Of a stretch of 64,000 nt of DNA, positions 3,026 to 37,647 are shown one piece after another. Within the stretch, counting starts at the first letter, position 1. Each line of letters starts with the position of its first letter. The stretch is from Pseudobdellovibrionaceae bacterium (GTDB taxonomy: Bacteria > Bdellovibrionota > Bdellovibrionia > Bdellovibrionales > Bdellovibrionaceae): the NCBI GenBank assembly GCA_039810425.1, contig JBDHWW010000003.1:64001-128000 (forward strand), read 5' to 3'. The position numbers and the translations under genes are program-made. Under the pieces are notes generated by a model. The model did not search any database and had not been told where the DNA came from. It saw nothing but the letters and a program-made list of their open reading frames with translations.

Positions 3026-4123
3026 TTAATTCGCAAAAACATCTGCACAGCGGGCGTTGAATGGGTTTTGTATTAGTCCCTTCATAACCGCTTGCGCAAA
3101 CCGCGTTTCAATAAAGGTCGTTATCTTCGTGTTATTCAAGTATACGACAAGGCCGACGATACCAGACGTTGCCAAAGCTCCCCACGGGGACAGGCCATAC
3201 ACGCTCGGGCTAAAAAGCATGGCCGTTGCCGCAAAATAACCCAGAAGAATGGATCGTGTCTCCTGCACTCGGCGGAAAACCCATTTCGAAGCCGGCTGAA
3301 TGCGTTCGTCAATCGAAGCAATATTCTCGGACCAGGCAAAGGATGCCACGCTCGACACTAGGCTCATCATTATCGGCACAGTCAACAGATGCATGTCCAC
3401 TGTTCCATCAACGAGTCGATCGAAGGAGAGGAAAGGAACCCGCGATAAGTTAATTAAACTTGAGAGCGCAAAGCTCGAAGTAAACAGCATACTGACGTCT
3501 GCAAAAGACTTCGCTTTAAGTTGGTCTGTTTTATAAATAAATTTGCTAAAAAATGAATAGAAGGGTTTCGTCGCATGGGACCAGCTATCTTTGTTAAGGC
3601 CGAATGCAACTGCGGTCATTACGGTGAAAACTATATTAGCGGTTCTTTCGAAACTCGAAAGATGGCTCGCATGAATCCATACATAAGAATCGACAAGAGT
3701 ATTAAAGGTTACAATCACGAGACCCCATTTATCGGCTTTCGCCGAAGTGACAACCTTCGCAGGATAAGCTCTTAGCAGCGCCGAGAAGTTCTTTGCCTTA
3801 GATTCTTTTCCCGCACGCGGAAGCGGCATCAACGCCACGTTTTCTTTTTTCAACTGAGCCGTACCGACCAAAATGTCTTCTAGATCCGAAGACACGATGA
3901 CATTTTTATCAGTCTTCTCAACGTGTTTTTTAATTTGAGCAAGAACCTCGGCCTCAGAGGCCACTTCCGGCAGCTCGACTTGAATATTCGTCGCCGCACT
4001 ACCCGCCCCAACACTGAGCTGTACAGAGATGTCTTCACGAATAGGAATTCTCTGTTGAGCAAACAGAGTCTCGGCAGAAAAGAAAGCCAGCAGAATAAAA
4101 AGCGATGTGCGACGTACAACCAT
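3026..4123 (-). CDS. Hypothetical multi-pass membrane protein with N-terminal signal-like segment
   Basis: 365-aa ORF with hydrophobic N-terminus and several hydrophobic helices in the C-terminal two-thirds; 14 nt downstream of the preceding gene. Confidence 0.7.
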   Translation of the reverse strand: MVVRRTSLFILLAFFSAETLFAQQRIPIREDISVQLSVGAGSAATNIQVELPEVASEAEVLAQIKKHVEKTDKNVIVSSDLEDILVGTAQLKKENVALMPLPRAGKESKAKNFSALLRAYPAKVVTSAKADKWGLVIVTFNTLVDSYVWIHASHLSSFERTANIVFTVMTAVAFGLNKDSWSHATKPFYSFFSKFIYKTDQLKAKSFADVSMLFTSSFALSSLINLSRVPFLSFDRLVDGTVDMHLLTVPIMMSLVSSVASFAWSENIASIDERIQPASKWVFRRVQETRSILLGYFAATAMLFSPSVYGLSPWGALATSGIVGLVVYLNNTKITTFIETRFAQAVMKGLIQNPFNARCADVFAN

Positions 4124-6294: not shown

Positions 6295-6365
6295 GACTAT
6301 ATCCATCCTTTAAAGCCGTTTGTTCGATCTGGGATCTCCCGATTCTGTTTTGTAAAAAAGTAAAA

Positions 6366-6380
6366 GCAACGAAGGTGCCA
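6366..6380 (-). promoter_or_regulatory. Sigma54 promoter of the 6294-3026 operon
   Basis: Minus strand reads TGGCAC-CTTCG-TTGC, an exact consensus match, about 70 nt upstream of the start codon. Confidence 0.8.
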
Positions 6381-28112: not shown

Positions 28113-28188
28113 TCCCTTGCGTCTCCACTAGCTAGTACTGCAAAATTAAATGATTATTGACGGCAAAAGTCCACCAGAAGGTTCTCCA

Positions 28189-29898
28189 ATGAACTCTCAA
28201 ACTGCAAAAACATCTCCGCTTCGAACAGTTCTGAAAGAACTCGTGCTGCCTTATTGGACACGTTCGGAAGATCGCTGGCGCGCGCGCGGATTGTTGGCTC
28301 TCACTTTGGTGTTGATCGTCGGTATGGTTTACGCCCTAGTTCTACTGAATCGCTGGAATCAAGCGTTCTACGACGCCCTTCAGAACTTGAATAGAGAGGA
28401 GTTCATCAGCCAGCTATGGCGTTTTTTCTTTATTGCGCTTTTTTACTCCGTGATCATGGCCTTGAAGTTCTATGTTTTGCAGAGCCTCGCCATCAACTGG
28501 CGTCAATGGATCACCGAAAAAGGCCTGCACCGCTGGCTCAGCGACAAGAACTTCTATTATTGGCAATTCAGCGGACATGAACACGATAATCCCGATCAGC
28601 GCCTCTCTGAAGATATTCACGAACTCACCGACTTGAGCCTCGAAATCTCAGAGAAGGTGATCCGTGAGTTCATCACCTTTGTGTCGTTCATCGGCATTCT
28701 CTGGAGCCTTTCAGGCTCGGCCAAATTCACGGCGTTTGGTTATAACATTGAGCTTTATCGTTACCTTGTTTGGGTTTGCTTGCTTTACGCGGTGGTCGGG
28801 ACTTTCATCGTTCACAAGATTGGTCATCCGCTTTCAAAACTCAACTTTATGCAGCAAAAACTCGAGGCGGATTTCCGTTACTTCTTGGTGCGCCTGCGTG
28901 AAAACAGCGAAAATGTGGCTTTACTCAACGGCGAAAAAGCCGAACAGCAAAAGCTTTCGACCAAATTCTCCCAGGTCGTGGGTAATTTCAAAGCGCTGAT
29001 CTCGCGCCAGAAGAAACTGATTCTAACGACGAATATTTACGGTCAGTTGGCTTATATCTTTCCGTTTGTGGTTGCGTCACCAAAAGTGTTCACCAAAGAG
29101 ATCACTCTGGGGCAGCTTTTCCAGATCAGCAGTGCCTTTGGCCAAGTGCAAGGGTCGGTCTCGGTGTTTGTGGATATGTATGCGAAGATCGCGCGACTGC
29201 ATTCGGTCGCTCTGCGTTTGGGCGGATTCTTAGGTTTGCTCGAAGAAAATCACGGGCTTCGCGAAAAAGGCCTAAATGGAAAACTCCATGCAACAGAGGG
29301 CGCGGGTCTTTCCGCCGAAGATTTGCGGGTCCTAACGCCACAGCAGCAAACTTTGTTGACCGCCGTAAATCTAAAACTCACCCCAGGACAGAGCTTGCTA
29401 ATCACAGCTCCTTCGGGAAAAGGCAAAACCACCTTGCTTCGCACTCTGAACGGCATTTGGCCTTTCATTGACGGACAGATTCATCTGCCTCGTCACAGCC
29501 ACCGTCTTGTGCTCACACAAAAAGCCTACTTACCGATCGGCACCCTGCGCGCGGCTCTGGCCTACCCGCTTTCCGCCGAAGCCTTCAGCGATCAAGACAT
29601 GGTTACAGCTTTGGCCGGCACGAAATTGAACTCACTCATTCAGCATCTTGATGACGAAGACTACTGGTCGCAACGTCTTTCTTCCGGCGAGCAACAGCGT
29701 TTGGCGCTGGCGCGTGCCTTCTTGCAAAAACCCGAAGTTTTGTTTTTAGACGAAGCCACTTCCGCCCTCGAAAAAGACACCGAAGCCGAGATCTACCAAG
29801 CTCTGATAAAATCCTTCCCCAAGATGATTCTTATCAGCTTCAGTCACGAAGCTGGCCCTCTCGCGGCTTTCCACCAAAAAACTCTGGCATTGCTCTGA
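28189..29898 (+). CDS. SbmA/BacA-like (YddA/ABCD-type) ABC transporter, fused permease-ATPase
   Basis: NRWNQAFYDALQ, DNPDQRLSED, EADFRYFLVRLREN, Walker A APSGKGKT, LSSGEQQR, LDEATSAL. Confidence 0.9.
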   Translation: MNSQTAKTSPLRTVLKELVLPYWTRSEDRWRARGLLALTLVLIVGMVYALVLLNRWNQAFYDALQNLNREEFISQLWRFFFIALFYSVIMALKFYVLQSLAINWRQWITEKGLHRWLSDKNFYYWQFSGHEHDNPDQRLSEDIHELTDLSLEISEKVIREFITFVSFIGILWSLSGSAKFTAFGYNIELYRYLVWVCLLYAVVGTFIVHKIGHPLSKLNFMQQKLEADFRYFLVRLRENSENVALLNGEKAEQQKLSTKFSQVVGNFKALISRQKKLILTTNIYGQLAYIFPFVVASPKVFTKEITLGQLFQISSAFGQVQGSVSVFVDMYAKIARLHSVALRLGGFLGLLEENHGLREKGLNGKLHATEGAGLSAEDLRVLTPQQQTLLTAVNLKLTPGQSLLITAPSGKGKTTLLRTLNGIWPFIDGQIHLPRHSHRLVLTQKAYLPIGTLRAALAYPLSAEAFSDQDMVTALAGTKLNSLIQHLDDEDYWSQRLSSGEQQRLALARAFLQKPEVLFLDEATSALEKDTEAEIYQALIKSFPKMILISFSHEAGPLAAFHQKTLALL

Positions 29899-30017: not shown

Positions 30018-30437
30018 CTAACGGAGACGACCGAGGGTCACGCCTGTCTCTTTGGCGATGAGGGCGGCGGAAATTTTCGCAACTCCCCCACCGAAACTCC
30101 TACCCAGCAAAATACAATCTGGCCGGCGCCCCTGCCACTCGGATGCCAAGAACTTTCCGGTACGATAAAGGCCTGACTGAATCTCATCACAAATCATCGG
30201 AATATGGCGCGGTTTAAAAAGAAACCCGACTTTCACCGATCATGCTTTGGCTCGGAGATCATGGCGATTTCCAGACTTTGCTAGCCGTGCCTGAAAAAAT
30301 CTCCGCGAGCTCCCAAGTGGACGCTTTTCCGTGATTGGGCCGCTGGCAAAGCAAAGAACACTATTCGCCTTCGAGCGCCTCATCGAGTCCGTGCAAGAGT
30401 TTAAAAAATCAAATTTGAAGGCCGAAGTCTTCGACAA
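30018..30437 (-). pseudogene. Degraded fragment of a class III PLP aminotransferase
   Basis: ICDEIQSGLYRTG...PDCILLGRSFGGG (catalytic Lys position reads Arg) in a 72-aa ORF; upstream FLNSCTDS resembles the N-terminal NSG.E motif; most of the gene is missing. Confidence 0.7.
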
Positions 30438-30548
30438 AGAGGTAATAGTTACATTGTGCCCCTACACGGGGTTCTGGCGCCAAGTTTGATACTTTATTCT
30501 AACTACTTATTTTTACTTGTCTTTTAAGCGTGGTGGCAAAATAAAAAT

Positions 30549-30564
30549 TGGCCCTTGAATTGCA
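30549..30564 (+). promoter_or_regulatory. Sigma54 promoter of the radical SAM-peptide-HK-RR operon
   Basis: TGGCCC-TTGAA-TTGCA (GG-N10-GC, one mismatch to consensus), about 65 nt upstream of ATG 30630, preceded by an AT-rich tract. Confidence 0.7.
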
Positions 30565-30629
30565 TATTTTTAGCCTTGGAAGTGGATGGTGACATAAGGT
30601 CACCAGTTGGCCACTATTGGGGACGACTC

Positions 30630-31937
30630 ATGGAACTACGACGCTACAAAGACATCCTAGCGCTAAAATCAGAAGAGGGCACTCTTCTGGCGTTTCATTC
30701 GCGCAACATGGAGGTCGCTCAAATCTCAGAAAGCGCCTGGGTGAACATGAACCCAACAACGTTGCTGAATTCGAACCCTTCGAAGGTTGTGCTCCAAGAA
30801 TGCGAAGCCCTCGAAGAGCTCAAAACTTGGAACCAGGAAGACAACGCTCAGGTTAAAACCAGCAAGATCAGCAACAACATCCGCTTTCTTACAATCAACG
30901 TGACTCAAATCTGCAACCTCCACTGCTCCTACTGCGCGGCGGGCGGCGACGGTACGTTCGGCGATAGCATCGCCAAAATCTCTATCGAAAAAACCTTACC
31001 GCAGATCAAGTTCTTCCTCGATCGTTTGCCACAAGGCTTAAGCTTCAACGTAAGCTTCCTCGGTGGCGAGCCTTTGCTTTATGCTGAAGGCCTCGAGATG
31101 ATTGCGAAATATATTGCTGACATCGCCCCTGAACGCAGCGTGAATTACACGATCATCACGAACGGCACATTGCTGACGGACAAAAATGTTGATTTGCTGG
31201 CACGCATGAAAGCCACCGTGACGATCAGCCTTGACGGTCCTGCGGAGATCAACGATCGCATGCGTCCGACCAAGAACGGAACTTCATCAACGGCGATGAT
31301 CGTGAAAGGCCTTGAAAAAGTCCTCGCACGCAAATCAGAATTCAGCCACGTGATGATTCACGGAGTTTTCGATAGCCAAAACATGGCGCTTGTGAAAGCT
31401 TACGAGTTCTATTCCCAATTCAACGTGGACAGCTATGATTTTTCATTCTCGGTTTCTGACAACAATCCCCGCGCGACTCAAGAGTACATGGAACAAATGA
31501 CTCAAGTCGCCGCGCTGGCTTACGCTCAAGGTGGCGAGAGGGCTCTCAGAAAGATCCGCGCGTTTGAACAGCATTTTCAGTCGTTGGACCAACAACGCCG
31601 TACCGAAAACTATTGCGGCGCCGGCAAGTCCTTCTTGATGATTGATGCCCGCAATCAGATCTACACCTGCCCTTGGGATGTGAATGAAAAGAAAGAGCAA
31701 GTTGGCCAAGGAACAGAGTTAAGCGAAAAGGCTTTGGAAGCGTACCAAAAGCCGATTCTCGAACAGAACAAATGTGAAACCTGCTGGGCGCGATTCCTAT
31801 GCGGCGGCGGCTGTATGTTCGCCCATAAGCATGGCTCAGGATCTAAGAACGTTAAAAATACGCTGTTTTGCGAAAGAACAAGATTTATGGTAGCGCTGGC
31901 ATTGATCTACTATGAGCGATGCCGAAGCGCCGCCTGA
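30630..31937 (+). CDS. Radical SAM/SPASM peptide maturase (ranthipeptide/SCIFF maturase-like)
   Basis: CNLHCSYC, FLGGEPLL, TNG, ISLDG; SPASM Cys pattern CGAG...YTC...CETCWARFLCGGGC...C; N-terminal extension compatible with an RRE domain. Confidence 0.9.
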   Translation: MELRRYKDILALKSEEGTLLAFHSRNMEVAQISESAWVNMNPTTLLNSNPSKVVLQECEALEELKTWNQEDNAQVKTSKISNNIRFLTINVTQICNLHCSYCAAGGDGTFGDSIAKISIEKTLPQIKFFLDRLPQGLSFNVSFLGGEPLLYAEGLEMIAKYIADIAPERSVNYTIITNGTLLTDKNVDLLARMKATVTISLDGPAEINDRMRPTKNGTSSTAMIVKGLEKVLARKSEFSHVMIHGVFDSQNMALVKAYEFYSQFNVDSYDFSFSVSDNNPRATQEYMEQMTQVAALAYAQGGERALRKIRAFEQHFQSLDQQRRTENYCGAGKSFLMIDARNQIYTCPWDVNEKKEQVGQGTELSEKALEAYQKPILEQNKCETCWARFLCGGGCMFAHKHGSGSKNVKNTLFCERTRFMVALALIYYERCRSAA

Positions 31938-32001
31938 ACCACAACCACCAGGACATGATGGAGCAATAATGATGAAATTCCTAACTCTACTAAAGGAAAA
32001 G

Positions 32002-32136
32002 ATGATGGAAAAAATAGAGAAAAAACACATTAAGAAGCTGAAGCCACAAACATCTCAGCCTTCGCATTTTGGGCCTGGTAACGGCGGCAATCCGTGCCCT
32101 CCAGTCGGTGGCGATATTATGGTACCAAACAACTAG
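32002..32136 (+). CDS. Putative RiPP precursor peptide (44 aa; alternative starts at 31969/31972)
   Basis: AAAGGA RBS; MMEKIEKKHIKKLKPQTSQPSHFGPGNGGNPCPPVGGDIMVPNN; lies between the maturase and the kinase. Confidence 0.7.
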   Translation: MMEKIEKKHIKKLKPQTSQPSHFGPGNGGNPCPPVGGDIMVPNN

Positions 32137-32155
32137 TTTGAGGAACTGACTAACG

Positions 32156-34033
32156 ATGGCACTTCCTCCTTCGCAGACTAAAACAAAAGGCCCTTTCAAA
32201 GGTGGAATCTTGTATTCCGTCTTGCGCCTTGTTTTGGCTTGCGCGATGGGCGTTTTCATCAGTCAGCTCAAACTCGATTCTTGGGAATCCATGCTCTACG
32301 ACATGCGCGTTCGCTTGTTGCCGGAGCCCGCTCCTTCGGGTCAGATTGAAATGATTTTGACCACATCGCGGACGGTAGAAACCCTCAAAGGGATTCCTAC
32401 TGCGAAGGAGCAATTGGAACTCCTTAAGAACCTCGAACGCGAAGAGCCTCTGGCGGTTCTTTACATCCAAAACCTCGGCGAGCTTGAAGGAAGTGCTGAA
32501 GAAAAAAAAGCCTTCGCCGCTGAAGCTTTGAAGCTCAACAACCTGTACATGGCCAGCCAGGATCTTGAAATGAAAGGCGAAGAGGGAAAGCTCCGCCTGG
32601 CGGAGCCACTCAATACGATTGAACTCTTCCCCGGCCCACGCACCAGTGATGGCGATGTGCTTGCCCAGGATAAGGTGACCCGTCGTATGATGATCACTTA
32701 CCAAGACCGCCAGATGATTCACCCCTTTATTGCCAGCCTTGTGAATCCTGAAGTTTCCAAAAAGGAAAATATCCGCGGTCTGTTTGAGTTCTTTGACTCT
32801 GAACAGGTATATATCAGTTACCGCAAAGCTGACACGTATCCAATGACGGCATTTGAAGACGTCATGGATAAACGTTTTGAACCGGGTCACTTTAAAAACA
32901 AAATCGTTCTGATCGGTAACGATCACGGCGGCTCCGTGCGTGACTACGTGAAGACGCCATTTTCCAAAGACGCGAAGGCCATGACCCTCGTGGAACTTCA
33001 CGCCAATATGCTTGATACTTTGATTCAAAATAAAGCGCCGATTCAGGCGGCCCCCTGGTTGAACGTATTGGTGACGATACTAACGTCCATCATCACCGTT
33101 TACGTTCTCTTCACAATGAAACCAATTCGAAGTCTCACGATTCTGGCGGCGACCGGCGGTGCCTTACTCGTATTCAGTGCGATCGCTTTCTGGCCCATCG
33201 GCTATTGGGTGAAGATGGCGCATCCCTTCCTGGCGATCTTCTTGTGCTATTACTTCTTTATCCCCTACCGCTTGATCATCGAAAATCGTCGCAGTTGGGA
33301 ATACTACCAGAAAAATAAGCTGCTTTCCCAAGTTGAGGAACTCAAAGGCAACTTCATTTCGATGATGTCGCACGATTTAAAAACGCCGATTGCCCGTATT
33401 CAAGGCATGACCGATGTGATTCTCAAGGACCAACAACCCTTGAGCACCCAGCAACGCGAAGCCGTGGATACGATCCGTCATTCCGGTGACGATCTTTTGC
33501 GGTTCATCAATGCGATTTTGAACTACGGTAAGATCGAGAGCCAAGGGGTCCAACTGCATATGCAAAGTCGGGACGTTAATTCATTGCTGAAAGACGTTAT
33601 CCATAAGCATGAGTTCCTGGCTAAGGTAAAACGTATTCCGATTAAGTTTGAATCCGAGCCTTTATTTCCGATCCAGGTGGACCCCGAGCTCATGAAGCAA
33701 GTGTTCTCGAACCTTATAGAGAACGCCATTAAGTACAGCCCTGAGGAATCTCAGGTGCAGGTTCACAGCGAAGAGGTTAACGGCAAAGTGATCGTTCGCG
33801 TCCAAGACAGCGGACCTGGAATTCCAGAGGACGAAGTGAGCAACATTTTTATGAAGTTTTTTAGAAGCAAGAATGCGAAAAGTTCTCCGATTAAAGGATC
33901 GGGACTCGGGTTGTACCTTGCTAAATATTTTACAGAATTGCACCAGGGCAGAATCTTTGTTGAAAGTACCTATGGAAAAGGATGTACTTTTACTGTAGAA
34001 CTGCCTCTGGAACAGGGGAGGTCACATGCTTAG
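32156..34033 (+). CDS. CHASE2-domain sensor histidine kinase
   Basis: DKVTRR, FKNKIVLIG, TPF, VELHANMLDTL (CHASE2), three TM helices, H-box SHDLKTP, NLIENAIKY, DSGPGI, GSGLGL. Confidence 0.92.
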   Translation: MALPPSQTKTKGPFKGGILYSVLRLVLACAMGVFISQLKLDSWESMLYDMRVRLLPEPAPSGQIEMILTTSRTVETLKGIPTAKEQLELLKNLEREEPLAVLYIQNLGELEGSAEEKKAFAAEALKLNNLYMASQDLEMKGEEGKLRLAEPLNTIELFPGPRTSDGDVLAQDKVTRRMMITYQDRQMIHPFIASLVNPEVSKKENIRGLFEFFDSEQVYISYRKADTYPMTAFEDVMDKRFEPGHFKNKIVLIGNDHGGSVRDYVKTPFSKDAKAMTLVELHANMLDTLIQNKAPIQAAPWLNVLVTILTSIITVYVLFTMKPIRSLTILAATGGALLVFSAIAFWPIGYWVKMAHPFLAIFLCYYFFIPYRLIIENRRSWEYYQKNKLLSQVEELKGNFISMMSHDLKTPIARIQGMTDVILKDQQPLSTQQREAVDTIRHSGDDLLRFINAILNYGKIESQGVQLHMQSRDVNSLLKDVIHKHEFLAKVKRIPIKFESEPLFPIQVDPELMKQVFSNLIENAIKYSPEESQVQVHSEEVNGKVIVRVQDSGPGIPEDEVSNIFMKFFRSKNAKSSPIKGSGLGLYLAKYFTELHQGRIFVESTYGKGCTFTVELPLEQGRSHA

Positions 34034-35558
34034 AGTTTTGGTGGTCGATGATGATCAGGGATTAAGACTCTCAGTCAAAACAGCGCTCACGACGTCGAAT
34101 CGTTTTGAAGTTGAAGAGGCCTTTGACGGCCTGAATGCCATCGAGAAAGTAAAGGCACCTGAGAACTCAGGCGTAAAGAAGTTCGATGTTGTTATTCTTG
34201 ATGTCGACATGCCACGTATCAACGGTCTGGAAGCACTCAGACTGATCAAAGAACATGATCCAGGAATCATCGTATTGATGATCACGGCCCATGCAACTTT
34301 AGACCATGCGGTTCAAGCGGTCAAAGACGGCGCTTACAACTATCTTTCAAAACCTGTTTCCGGCGATGAACTCTTGGCCCTGGTGGATAAAGCAGTTTCC
34401 GCGCACACGATGATTTCAAACATCGCGGCATCGGCACCCGTGCTGGTGGAAGCGGGACGCAAGATTATCGGTAACACCCAGCAAATGCAGAAAGTTTTCA
34501 ACATCATTCACCGTCTGGCGAAGGTTGATACTCCCGTGTTGATTCGCGGCGCTTCTGGTTCTGGTAAAGAACTCGTTGCGAAAGCGATCCACTACAATTC
34601 TGCCCGTAAGGATGAAAAGTTCGTGGCCATCAACTGTTCTGCGATCCCGGAGAACTTGTTTGAATCAGAACTCTTCGGTCACGAAAAGGGTTCTTTCACT
34701 GGCGCGGATCAGCGCAAAATTGGTAAGTTCCAGTTTGCGGAAGGCGGAACATTGTTCTTGGATGAAGTAGGCGATATGCCACTCATGATGCAAGTTAAGA
34801 TCTTGCGCGTCCTCCAAGAGAAAATGTTCACCCCGGTGGGTTCAAACCGCGAGATTTCAACAAACGTAAGAATCGTGGCGGCGACAAACCGTCCTTTGGA
34901 AGACATGATCAAGGCCGGCACGTTCCGCGAAGACTTGTTCTATCGCTTGAATGTGGTCCCTATCTTCTTGCCCGCTTTGGCTGACCGCAAAGACGACATC
35001 GAGAACTTGATCAACATCTTCATCAAAAAGTTCAATGCAGCTCATGGCAAACGCATCTCTGGTGTGGCTCCAGATGCTTTGTCAGCGCTCAAGAAATACC
35101 AATGGCCGGGCAACATCCGTGAGTTGGAAAATGTGATTGAACATGCTTTCGTTCTTGAGACCCACAACATGATCACATTGGCGTCACTCCCAGAAGCGGT
35201 TTTGGCCGCAGCGGGTGTAAACTTGATTGATGCGTTGGCTCAGCCTGCGGTTGTTGATACGAAAGCGGCGGCTTCTATGTCCACAGACCTCGGTGACGAT
35301 GAGGATTTAGGCGTTGTTGATAGCGAAGACCTCGCGTTGGACAATGACGAAGGCGAAGTTGCAACTGTTTCTATTTCAGCTGGCAGCCTCGATTTTAACG
35401 CCCAAAAGGAAGCTTTCGAGAAAGAGTTCATCATCAAGGCTCTGAAGACCTTTAAAGGCCGCATCAACCAAACGGCTTTGCATGCTAACATTCCAAAGAA
35501 GACCCTGCTCCGCAAGATCGAAAAATATGGAATCATCGCAAAGGATTACTCTGTTTAA
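34026..35558 (+). CDS. Sigma54-dependent response regulator (NtrC/AtoC family)
   Basis: REC domain (VVDDD, LDVDMP), AAA+ GASGSGKE, ESELFGHEKGSFTGA, WPGNIRELEN, C-terminal Fis-like HTH; overlaps the kinase stop codon. Confidence 0.95.
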   Translation: MLRVLVVDDDQGLRLSVKTALTTSNRFEVEEAFDGLNAIEKVKAPENSGVKKFDVVILDVDMPRINGLEALRLIKEHDPGIIVLMITAHATLDHAVQAVKDGAYNYLSKPVSGDELLALVDKAVSAHTMISNIAASAPVLVEAGRKIIGNTQQMQKVFNIIHRLAKVDTPVLIRGASGSGKELVAKAIHYNSARKDEKFVAINCSAIPENLFESELFGHEKGSFTGADQRKIGKFQFAEGGTLFLDEVGDMPLMMQVKILRVLQEKMFTPVGSNREISTNVRIVAATNRPLEDMIKAGTFREDLFYRLNVVPIFLPALADRKDDIENLINIFIKKFNAAHGKRISGVAPDALSALKKYQWPGNIRELENVIEHAFVLETHNMITLASLPEAVLAAAGVNLIDALAQPAVVDTKAAASMSTDLGDDEDLGVVDSEDLALDNDEGEVATVSISAGSLDFNAQKEAFEKEFIIKALKTFKGRINQTALHANIPKKTLLRKIEKYGIIAKDYSV

Positions 35559-35585
35559 TCAAGTCAAGTATAGTGAGCACATTTC

Positions 35586-35619
35586 AAAACCCGGCCGCAA
35601 GAAAACGGCCGGTTTTTTT
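35586..35619 (+). terminator. Rho-independent terminator closing the operon
   Basis: CCGGCCG-caagaaaa-CGGCCGG-TTTTTT. Confidence 0.8.
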
Positions 35620-35728: not shown

Positions 35729-36859
35729 ATGGCTACAATGAAAACTCTTCTGACACTATTAGGTGCAGCGCTTGTCTCCGCCAGTGCACATGCAAACTCT
35801 TTGGGCTTTGATTTTCGCGGTGATGTTCAAAGCATCGATTACAACGACGCCGCGGGCGCTTCTGACTACACCCGCTTTTACCTGAAAACCGGGCGGTTGT
35901 ACTACAAAGGCACCGTCAATGACCGCTTCAGCTATGATCTCCGCCTGGGTTTCTATAAGCCCGCCGCCGACAATGTTTCAGCCGCAGGAGTGCCCGCCAA
36001 TAGCCGACGCGATTCTGTCAATAGCTCCGTTGAGTATGCCTTCATGACCGACAAGATGAGTGACAACTTTGTCTTATCCATTGGTAAGCTCAATTCAGAA
36101 ATCGGCGGCTTTGAAGGGGCTTCATCCGGCGCGGACCTCTACATGGTTTCTCCTTTTTACCAACACAGTGCTGCTGTCGGCCTGTCGGGCGGCAACATCG
36201 GCATCAACGAATCGGGCACGCGCAATCTTCTCTACACGGCGGGCCTTAAAGGCGATATCAGCTTTTCGGACCAACACATTTACCTGGTAGCGGTGAATAA
36301 TATCACGGATGCGACGGACTCAAGCTCGGCAACCGGCACCTTTAACCAAAATCGTGGTATGATGGGTGTGATTTGGAAAGGCTCTTTCATGGATAAAGCC
36401 CTGACCGGCCTGCTCAGTTACCACACCGTCAGCCCGCAAGGGGCCGGCGCTGGCGGCCAAACAAACCCGGATAATAAGCATGACTTCATTTCTGCAGGCG
36501 CTAAATATGAAGATGCCACTTGGGTCGGCAGCCTTGAGTACAGTACGACGACATTTAAAGACGGAGCCAGTGGCAACAAGGACCAAGTCTATGCGGCCAT
36601 TGCAAAATTTGGCTACAAGCTCGATTCATGGACTCCACGTTTAGAAGTTTTCACCTCTGAGGAAAAACGCGAAGTTGGAGTCACTGAAACCAACAAGTTC
36701 ATGGGGGTCGGCGCGGTTGTTGAATACAAACCCACCGCTGAAAATGTCCGTTACCATTTGGCCTACAATAGCATCACGACAGACCCGGAAACCGGCGATA
36801 ACAAGATCCGAAATGAACTGGTACTGGGCGCACGCCTGTACGGCGATTTCCTGAAATAG
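35729..36859 (+). CDS. Putative outer membrane porin
   Basis: Signal peptide ending in AHA, beta-strand pattern, C-terminal ARLYGDFLK. Confidence 0.65.
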   Translation: MATMKTLLTLLGAALVSASAHANSLGFDFRGDVQSIDYNDAAGASDYTRFYLKTGRLYYKGTVNDRFSYDLRLGFYKPAADNVSAAGVPANSRRDSVNSSVEYAFMTDKMSDNFVLSIGKLNSEIGGFEGASSGADLYMVSPFYQHSAAVGLSGGNIGINESGTRNLLYTAGLKGDISFSDQHIYLVAVNNITDATDSSSATGTFNQNRGMMGVIWKGSFMDKALTGLLSYHTVSPQGAGAGGQTNPDNKHDFISAGAKYEDATWVGSLEYSTTTFKDGASGNKDQVYAAIAKFGYKLDSWTPRLEVFTSEEKREVGVTETNKFMGVGAVVEYKPTAENVRYHLAYNSITTDPETGDNKIRNELVLGARLYGDFLK

Positions 36860-37161: not shown

Positions 37162-37647
37162 ATGACGATGAACCCCCTACCACCTCAGGCATATACCAAG
37201 GACACGCTGACAAAAGCCTACATGTGGCTTGTGCATCAGAGTGACGCTATCAAGGAGCTCGCGACGACTCCTGATATTTTGGTCAGTCTTTTTCTCAAGG
37301 CGCAACGGAACGGGGATGAAGCCCTGGAGACTCCGAGCATCCAAAATTTCAAAAAAGAGCTTAAAAGTTTAGCAGGTATGATGGGCGAACTCGACGGTGG
37401 CAAACCTGCGCCCGCCGTTTTTACCCAGCCTCCGCCCCAAACCGCTCCGCAGGTTGTCGTTCAACAAACTAAACAGGTAAATATCCAGAATAATCATATG
37501 CCTATGGATCTGGCTGGACAGATGGATGCAAAAAGCCGCGCGATGATTGCCGAAGTCCGCGAACAGTTAAATTTGAGTTCAGACCTCGAAGTCATCCGCC
37601 TTTTGGTCTCATTGGGCTATCACAAAGCCAAAAACCTCTATTCTTAA
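37162..37647 (+). CDS. Hypothetical cytoplasmic protein
   Basis: 161-aa ORF with two helical domains joined by a Pro/Gln linker. Confidence 0.65.
   Translation: MTMNPLPPQAYTKDTLTKAYMWLVHQSDAIKELATTPDILVSLFLKAQRNGDEALETPSIQNFKKELKSLAGMMGELDGGKPAPAVFTQPPPQTAPQVVVQQTKQVNIQNNHMPMDLAGQMDAKSRAMIAEVREQLNLSSDLEVIRLLVSLGYHKAKNLYS

Follow-up and report, generated by a model that had tools for sequence, protein, structure and literature searches.

A conserved, probably sigma-54-dependent two-component operon of the Bdellovibrionales with a candidate radical SAM RiPP pair

The subject of this account is a compact four-gene unit in a 64,000-nucleotide stretch of Pseudobdellovibrionaceae DNA (GenBank assembly GCA_039810425.1, contig JBDHWW010000003.1, positions 64,001 to 128,000; the whole stretch is called the window below). 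The genes, all on the plus strand, encode in order a radical S-adenosylmethionine (SAM) enzyme, a small open reading frame (ORF), a CHASE2 sensor histidine kinase and an NtrC-type response regulator, as read from the ORF list and the sequence. The unit is probably a self-activated, sigma-54-dependent two-component operon of the Bdellovibrionales, the first two genes of which form a new radical SAM pair for a ribosomally synthesised and post-translationally modified peptide (RiPP). Both the set of four genes and the sigma-54 promoter in front of it are conserved. A first-pass annotation, made by a model from the letters of the DNA, had described the four genes, their spacing, a GG-N10-GC promoter and a terminator, and ORFs and sequence bear out all of these. 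In a literature search no paper was found that describes this operon, and none that combines CHASE2 with radical SAM or RiPP.

In the scheme that we favour, the CHASE2 kinase would sense a periplasmic cue that is met while growing in prey and would phosphorylate the activator, which would in turn bind a conserved 16-nt block and fire its own operon, a case of positive autoregulation. Because the activator would fire its own operon, the maturase and peptide would be produced as the built-in output of the sensor system. The N-terminal domain of the maturase would bind the Lys-rich leader of the peptide, and the enzyme would act on the single Cys in GxGCxPxG; judging from kinship with CteB, the most likely product would be a thioether to a nearby residue.

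Conservation of the unit and its promoter

Two overlapping sets of loci were compared, a fetched set of 37 related loci (38 counting the window's own) and a named set of 80. Maturase orthologues are present in 34 of the 36 other genomes of the same family and in 43 of the 301 genomes of a phylum sample, all but one of them within a single order, the Bdellovibrionales. The kinase lies downstream of the maturase in 36 of the 37 fetched loci, the remaining locus ending at a contig edge, and the regulator comes after the kinase in 32; among the other five, one has the regulator inverted upstream, three are cut, and one has no regulator in the 1.5 kb left. In the named set the kinase follows in 76 loci and the regulator in 64. 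Of the gene order and the promoter, whose conservation the first-pass annotation had put forward for checking, the order is kept across the Bdellovibrionales loci and the promoter in most of them.

Labels in the named set are Bdellovibrio, Pseudobdellovibrionaceae or Bdellovibrionales, except for one contig labelled Streptomyces. That contig (locus L100), from a metagenome-assembled genome labelled Streptomyces griseus, has a maturase-kinase locus typical of the Bdellovibrio type (48% identity), with no regulator found downstream, and is probably mis-binned. In three further loci (L133, L134 and L138) the regulator, with the downstream gene p161, or the kinase and regulator together, is inverted upstream of the maturase, the parts still being linked.

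The promoter motif does not stand out from the window alone: TGGC-N7-TTGCW has three matches where 1.76 are expected, and 25 of 100 shuffles reach three, which is not significant. The promoter is held to be real because its position is conserved in relatives. Of the 38 loci, 26 have the strict motif TGG-N9-TGC at a distance of 30-139 nt before the maturase start; the background is 94 matches in 501,092 strand-positions (0.028 per 150 nt), at which about one locus of the 38 would be expected. A relaxed form (GG-N10-GC with TTGC) is present in seven further loci, bringing the count to 33 of 38. Among the 78 named loci with enough upstream DNA, 69 have GG-N8-T[TG]GC within 200 nt upstream, where chance would give about 0.1 per locus by our own arithmetic. 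The genome also carries rpoN, so that motif, conserved distance and sigma factor are found together, and the first-pass claim of a sigma-54 promoter at the front of the operon stands. Before the internal genes the motif is essentially absent (peptide 0/37, kinase 1/36, regulator 0/33), and no internal sigma-54 promoter is conserved. Two further matches in the window, both TGGCAC-N5-TTGCT on the minus strand (2713-2728 and 6365-6380), are nearer the sigma-54 consensus than the operon promoter is.

The maturase and its peptide

The start of the maturase is taken as the ATG at 30630, which is conserved across the genus (MELRRYKDIL); the ORF list had TTG 30555. The protein matches Pfam Radical_SAM with 65.6 bits (cut-off 29.5, E 7.9e-18). 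In 32 maturase sequences the CX3CX2C residues C95, C99 and C102 are invariant, as are seven SPASM Cys (C329, C347, C382, C385, C391, C395 and C414), which make up a CX2CX5CX3C motif plus upstream Cys, the set for two auxiliary clusters. With an adjacent precursor that has a conserved leader and core, these features place the enzyme among the radical SAM/SPASM maturases. The best NCBIfam models (nif11-type, PapB, SCIFF, CcpM and QhpD) score 122-162 bits, all far below their cut-offs: PapB (NF047865) gives 161.9 bits against a cut-off of 340, SCIFF (TIGR03974) 139.3 against 425, and QhpD 122. The anaerobic sulfatase maturase model (TIGR03942) likewise falls short, at 88.9 against 349.

Structural comparison points the same way as the profile search. 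The top entries of the Protein Data Bank (PDB) in that search were 5wgg/5why (1.7e-47, residues 26-424, 165 bits), followed at a distance by the anaerobic sulfatase-maturating enzyme, anSME (6.5e-21, 78 bits). An AlphaFold model of the maturase (mean predicted local distance difference test score, pLDDT, 91.8) aligned in Foldseek with 5wgg over its full length, the N-terminal strand-helix domain included, at a template modelling (TM) score of 0.79; anSME reached 0.66 over the core only, some 380 columns. The PDB title of 5wgg/5why mentions only thioether formation in sactipeptides. We take these entries to be CteB. From sequence and modelled fold, the enzyme would be expected to form a thioether at the single Cys under guidance of the leader.

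The small ORF that the first-pass annotation had proposed as a precursor peptide proved to be genuine. A rule-based search of the 38 loci found a small ORF between the maturase and kinase genes in 37 of them, the last being cut by the contig end. The window's peptide has a Lys-rich leader with KHIKKLKP and a Gly/Pro core, GGNPCPPVGGD, that contains the sole core Cys; the alignment consensus is M...KHIKKxKP...GxGCxPxG, and the peptide is highly basic and rich in Gly and Pro. When the 37 cores are anchored on the Cys, it is present in all 37, with Pro at +2 in 35, Gly at +4 in 26, Gly at -1 in 19 and Gly at -3 in 23; position +4 is Lys or Arg in six (CIPVR, CLPIR, CIPMK). Exactly one Cys falls within the last 30 residues in each of the 37 peptides, and some cores terminate 3-4 residues past it. 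Differences within the genus fall 191/83/453 at codon positions 1/2/3, and the ORF is therefore under selection at the protein level. No Pfam or NCBIfam family matched the peptide, and its 17 relatives in a collection of 5.8 billion proteins are named at most 'hypothetical protein'. No secretion signal is visible in the alignment. By these sequence measures the peptide is a real gene and represents a new precursor family with a single Cys in GxGCxPxG.

Two start sites are available to the window's peptide. The longer form, starting at 31969, is preceded by GGAG-N5 and leaves a gap of 31 nt after the maturase; counted from ATG 32002 the gap is 64 nt, the figure in the first-pass annotation. The peptide and kinase genes are separated by 19 nt, and the kinase and regulator genes overlap by 8 nt. 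Two loci have a tandem pair of precursor genes, whose cores differ, in the space between the maturase and kinase genes (L032, 2560-2832; L056, 2560-2825).

Control, expression and sensing

The regulator matches Response_reg (96.7 bits), Sigma54_activat (243.8 bits, 9.9e-73) and HTH_8 (26.8 bits), all above the Pfam cut-offs, and AAA_lid_14 as well. Its translation contains a GSFTGA loop, and it has the receiver (REC), AAA+ and Fis-type helix-turn-helix (HTH) domains of an NtrC-type activator. The candidate site for it is the 16-nt block, whose core is invariant in a seven-member genus alignment and which Gibbs sampling recovered de novo from a set of 101 upstream regions, no two of them identical. 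The consensus of the position weight matrix (PWM) is AGTTTCATTTTGCCCC, and in other genera the element takes a dyad-like form (GTGTCA-N-TGACAC). No PWM match in its own genome scores higher than the window's block (23.6 bits), and among 79 genome matches of at least 13 bits it is the one that has a sigma-54 motif some 100 nt further downstream. Of the 17 maturase-less loci, which are independent of the training set, 8 have a match scoring 8 bits or more in the 450 nt ahead of the kinase gene, compared with 0.09 expected per locus. Self-activation is inferred because the only DNA-binding protein always encoded beside the block is the operon's own regulator. The first-pass proposal that the regulator activates its own operon is thereby made plausible on sequence grounds, the conserved block travelling with kinase and regulator even where there is no maturase; the identity of the binding protein is the part that stays putative.

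The same dyad element also occurs downstream of the promoter: 10 of 33 loci, spread over several genera, have it at +30 to +51 from the -24 TGG with a score of at least 8 bits. In the window the leader palindrome GGTGACATAAGGTCACC scores 7.9 bits with the upstream-site PWM and shows paired changes across the genus. It was considered as a hairpin in a family-wide RNA structure, which was rejected as the fold is not conserved outside the genus, and it was reread as a possible second copy of the dyad. A wider regulon through the block was also rejected: among the other matches of at least 13 bits, TGG-N9-TGC follows 56-186 nt downstream in just two, both weak (13.8 and 13.4 bits), at +68 and +70. 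A search with a 19-mer, allowing up to four mismatches, returned only the site itself.

The operon has a counterpart in the model strain Bdellovibrio bacteriovorus HD100. A named B. bacteriovorus locus (L081) encodes four proteins that share 90% clusters with CAE78160-CAE78163 of HD100, which are named for heme biosynthesis, as a 38-aa uncharacterised protein, as a sensory transduction histidine kinase and as probable ZraR; by product names that match published tables these are Bd3357-Bd3360. In the published data the operon is expressed and rises inside prey. On arrays, Bd3357-Bd3360 went up 1.6, 2.2, 2.2 and 3.0-fold at bdelloplast entry, with no rise in host-independent growth, and a passage of that paper names Bd3359 and Bd3360 as predation-induced two-component genes, the maturase and peptide being unmentioned there (PMC2797640). 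RNA-seq gave, for attack phase and 3 h growth respectively, 0.7 and 41, 2.6 and 26, 1.3 and 34, and 4.4 and 88 reads per kilobase per million mapped reads for the four genes in order (PMC3627812). The proteome data detect Bd3357, Bd3359 and Bd3360, with the peptide not seen; the regulator peaks at 3 h with a log2 fold change of 1.96 (false discovery rate 6e-16), the kinase rises by 0.86, and the maturase changes by 0.27, which is not significant (PMC12546842).

Several observations weigh against the account of a self-activated operon with a RiPP pair. Five of the 38 loci have no sigma-54 motif upstream of the maturase. The 16-nt block is above threshold in only 34 of the 101 loci (10-25 bits at -90 to -119; 99th percentile of shuffles, 7.4 bits), and that count is circular, the same sites having trained the PWM; the genome rank of the window's block, the matches in maturase-less loci and the second position at +30 to +51 are free of this circularity. 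The genome has 11 full-length Sigma54_activat proteins, the regulator among them, any of which might fire the promoter. The chemistry predicted for the maturase is drawn from homology, there being no conserved acceptor residue beside the core Cys in the 37 peptides, and every curated maturase model is missed by a wide margin. The RNA-seq reads are few (3 vs 52, 1 vs 3, 8 vs 63 and 22 vs 132), and by that study's own expression threshold three of the four genes fall short (PMC3627812). Moreover, the regulator swings more than the maturase on arrays, in RNA-seq and in the proteome. A single transcript does not predict this difference, which might come from an additional promoter inside the operon or from differences in stability among its parts.

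What the kinase senses is a separate question. It matches CHASE2 (82 bits vs a cut-off of 26.3; 6.8e-23, residues 29-313), HisKA and HATPase_c, and its H-box is SHDLKTP, with H406 invariant; these domains, with flanking hydrophobic stretches judged by eye, are those of a CHASE2 sensor kinase. Orthologues of the N-terminal half of the kinase (E <= 1e-40) are present in 69 of the 301 genomes of the phylum sample, 57 of them in the order, where the maturase is present in 42. The kinase is thus kept without the maturase in about 15 of the 57, and in one family the figures are 13 of 18 for the kinase and 5 of 18 for the maturase. The first-pass annotation had counted against its own reading the case that the pair usually occurs without the maturase in relatives; such loci do exist, though in about a quarter of the in-order genomes rather than as a rule.

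Orthologous loci with kinase, regulator and p161, lacking both maturase and Cys peptide, number 10 in a fetched set, drawn from other families except for one from the window's own, and seven more. In 10 of the 17, a strict sigma-54 motif is kept 47-333 nt before the kinase; the kinase and regulator therefore appear as a constant chassis and the RiPP pair as a variable front end. The kinases of the 10 fetched loci keep 85% of 25 conserved periplasmic columns, compared with 94% of 87 cytoplasmic ones, and D49, D165, V174, R176, R177, A283 and N284 are retained in all 10.

Some maturase-less loci have features of their own. The one from the window's family (L058, genome G019) has, at 3346-3474, a 42-aa Cys-less ORF rich in Gly, Asn and Pro between the sigma-54 motif and the kinase, which may be a decayed or repurposed precursor. 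Another (L062) has, at 431-1930 on the minus strand, a distinct ORF of 499 aa whose Cys motif resembles that of radical SAM enzymes; it is on the strand opposite to the kinase, 1.5 kb upstream of it, and was missed by the maturase query. Small K-rich ORFs in L063, L064 and L065 were considered as precursor homologues and rejected, the similarity being too weak.

The first-pass annotation had proposed that CHASE2 senses the modified peptide, and its loop can be stated in full: the peptide would be exported, accumulate, bind the periplasmic CHASE2 and drive its own synthesis, as a signal of density or progeny count. The layout of enzyme, peptide, kinase and regulator behind one promoter is that of peptide-pheromone operons, and it is kept across the Bdellovibrionales; peptide and kinase remain adjacent even where the regulator is inverted (L134, L138), and induction inside prey fits a signal in a confined space. 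In all 32 complete loci, moreover, core distance and CHASE2 distance rise together (r 0.46; partial correlation given the regulator 0.30, p 0.0005), and core distance has no correlation with maturase distance once CHASE2 is controlled. The covariation, which the first-pass annotation had suggested as a check, is fragile, however: with a single own-genus representative, or with ranks, r falls to 0.15-0.24 and the partial correlation given the cytoplasmic half of the kinase to 0.05-0.12, which is not significant. An autoinducer receptor would be found only with its signal or would co-vary with it; here the kinase occurs also without the maturase, and the covariation is not robust. Against the loop stand also the maturase-less kinases with their conserved CHASE2, the want of any visible secretion signal in the peptide, and the lack of any conserved exporter or leader protease in the flanking 6 kb. 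The tests lend the proposal no support, the return of the peptide to the kinase as a signal is on balance the less probable outcome, and the closed loop is unlikely. The same missing export functions, and the basic, Gly/Pro-rich character of the peptide, would suit a molecule that is never exported and acts inside the producer as a kinase/regulator modulator or as a redox or cofactor-like compound, and the Cys-less ORF retained in the same place in L058 could be read likewise. That ORF may however be a decaying remnant, and many RiPP clusters lack local transporters; an internal role is improbable.

Two further alternatives concern the enzyme and the activator. The maturase might oxidise the Cys itself to a formylglycine-type aldehyde, as anSME does, rather than cross-link it, the product being a reactive peptide aldehyde. 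The invariant core features are limited to the Cys and the Pro at +2, C-x-P-x-R is the sulfatase target motif of anSME, and Arg or Lys does appear at +4 in some cores; no acceptor side chain is conserved, some cores stop soon after the Cys, and anSME is the second-best structural match. The enzyme is nevertheless far closer to the thioether-forming 5wgg/5why, the PapB, SCIFF and QhpD models all outscore that of the sulfatase maturases, Gly rather than Arg prevails at +4, and the N-terminal domain of the leader-binding type is absent from anSME, all of which makes oxidation of the Cys doubtful. As to the activator, a different enhancer-binding protein might fire the promoter, the operon then being a downstream target in a cascade and not self-activating. 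The number of activators in the genome allows this, and the block need not belong to the operon's regulator. Yet the rank of the block in its genome, the sigma-54 motif that accompanies it about 100 nt downstream, its presence beside kinase and regulator in maturase-less genomes and the regulator's constant place next to it make such a cascade quite unlikely. A self-activated operon with a thioether-forming maturase is the reading carried forward below.

Neighbouring genes and known systems

Table 1. Features of the operon in the window
Feature	Position	Strand	Basis or remark
Candidate upstream activator site, 16-nt block AGTTACATTGTGCCCC	30447..30462	+	102 nt before -24 element
Sigma-54 (-24/-12) promoter TGGCCC-TTGAA-TTGCA = TGGCCCTTGAATTGCA	30549..30564	+	66 nt before maturase ATG
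Palindrome GGTGACATAAGGTCACC in 5' leader	30586..30604	not assigned (.)	second dyad copy or RNA hairpin
Radical SAM/SPASM peptide maturase, CteB-like, 435 aa	30630..31937	+	Pfam, PDB profile search, AlphaFold/Foldseek
Precursor peptide, 55 aa; 44 aa from in-frame ATG 32002	31969..32136	+	homologous small ORFs in related loci
CHASE2 sensor histidine kinase, 625 aa	32156..34033	+	Pfam, H-box
NtrC-type response regulator / sigma-54 enhancer-binding protein, 510 aa	34026..35558	+	Pfam, GSFTGA loop
Intrinsic terminator closing unit	35591..35619	+	CCGGCCG-loop-CGGCCGG (7 G-C pairs) then T7

The conserved flanks of the operon are described as housekeeping genes. In the 80 named loci they include a penicillin-binding protein 1 (PBP1)-type enzyme in 50, a protein of the metallo-beta-lactamase fold in 49 and p161 in 45, together with ileS. 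In the window p161 (37162-37647, plus strand) is a hypothetical protein specific to Bdellovibrionota that follows the regulator in those 45 loci and is present in maturase-less loci also; no Pfam family matched it, and its Atlas matches are only hypothetical proteins of the Bdellovibrionota. It may be part of an ancestral kinase-regulator unit, or may merely be syntenic with ileS. Between regulator and p161 the window has a porin-like outer-membrane gene (35729-36859, plus strand), whose Porin_O_P match is weak and below the cut-off; this insertion is confined to the genus, p161 coming directly after the regulator in other genera.

Directly upstream of the operon lies a fused SbmA/BacA-like ABC transporter gene (28150-29898, plus strand; ABC_membrane_2 and ABC_tran), of a family presumably associated with peptide uptake. 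It was considered as an exporter for the peptide and rejected, since its adjacency is restricted to the genus: it adjoins the operon in four of the six other genus loci and, among the 80 named loci, in L071 only. The ABC gene and the operon are 650 nt apart, and in this spacer a 72-aa ORF fragment (30018-30236, minus strand) matches positions 224-275 of a 403-position class-III aminotransferase profile (E 1.9e-10) and, from this partial match, looks like a pseudogene remnant.

The operon bears on several wider matters. The timing of Bdellovibrio growth, septation and exit in prey is largely unknown, and the operon is near-universal in the family and prey-induced in the model strain. It couples CHASE2, for which no reported ligand was found, to a previously undescribed modified peptide. 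In HD100 (Bd3357-Bd3360) its parts are defined: a promoter, a 16-nt candidate activator site, a maturase and a peptide of 38-55 aa. For radical SAM enzymology it offers a new precursor family, and the maturase-less relatives are natural controls for the peptide as signal or as output. A more speculative possibility, to which we give little credence, is that the one-Cys peptide, carrying a thioether or an aldehyde, is released into the closed bdelloplast or the medium and read by the CHASE2 domain of the adjacent kinase, as a self-amplifying signal of confinement, progeny number or prey state, the maturase-less lineages having fallen back on a second, ancestral cue. If true, this would give the first known ligand for any CHASE2 domain; it would also be the first case, among Gram-negative bacteria, of a radical SAM RiPP autoinducer linked to sigma-54.

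Among known systems, the closest to the maturase and its peptide are SCIFF/thermocellin (precursor CteA, maturase CteB, 5wgg/5why) and, akin to it, the ranthipeptide enzymes PapB and QhpD, which share the CX3CX2C motif, the seven-Cys SPASM set and an N-terminal domain of the leader-binding type. This group gives the best match in both sequence and fold; there too a small precursor gene adjoins that of the enzyme, whose target residue is Cys. The SCIFF precursor has six Cys, however, whereas the operon peptide has one, and the leader (KHIKKxKP) and core (GxGCxPxG) are different. The SCIFF system is found in Clostridia, whereas the operon belongs to aerobic Gram-negative predators and is fused into a CHASE2/sigma-54 two-component operon. 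The anSME enzymes (PDB 4k36-4k39) share the SPASM fold and a target Cys with Pro at +2 and sometimes Arg or Lys at +4, but their substrate is a sulfatase rather than a dedicated leader-bearing peptide, Gly prevails at +4 in the operon peptides, and the sequence match is weaker than to the CteB type.

The arrangement of the genes recalls agrBDCA, in which a processing enzyme, a peptide, a histidine kinase and a response regulator form one autoregulated unit, a likeness that the first-pass annotation had drawn. It holds for gene order and not for the parts: by Pfam there is no AgrB protease, HPK10 receptor or LytTR regulator, and in their place the operon has an enzyme of the radical SAM class, a kinase with CHASE2 and HisKA domains and a sigma-54 activator of the NtrC type. 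In its control the operon resembles the self-activated NtrC-family operons of the glnA-ntrBC and zraSR type, with which it shares the REC-AAA+-HTH_8 architecture, a GAFTGA-type loop, a HisKA partner, and a -24/-12 promoter preceded, at about 100 nt, by a dyad-like site; the HD100 regulator is indeed annotated 'probable ZraR'. The regulator does not reach the equivalog models of that family (AtoC 417 vs 714 bits, NtrC 416 vs 559). The operon differs from these systems in that its sensor is a CHASE2 domain without known ligand and that it carries a RiPP pair.

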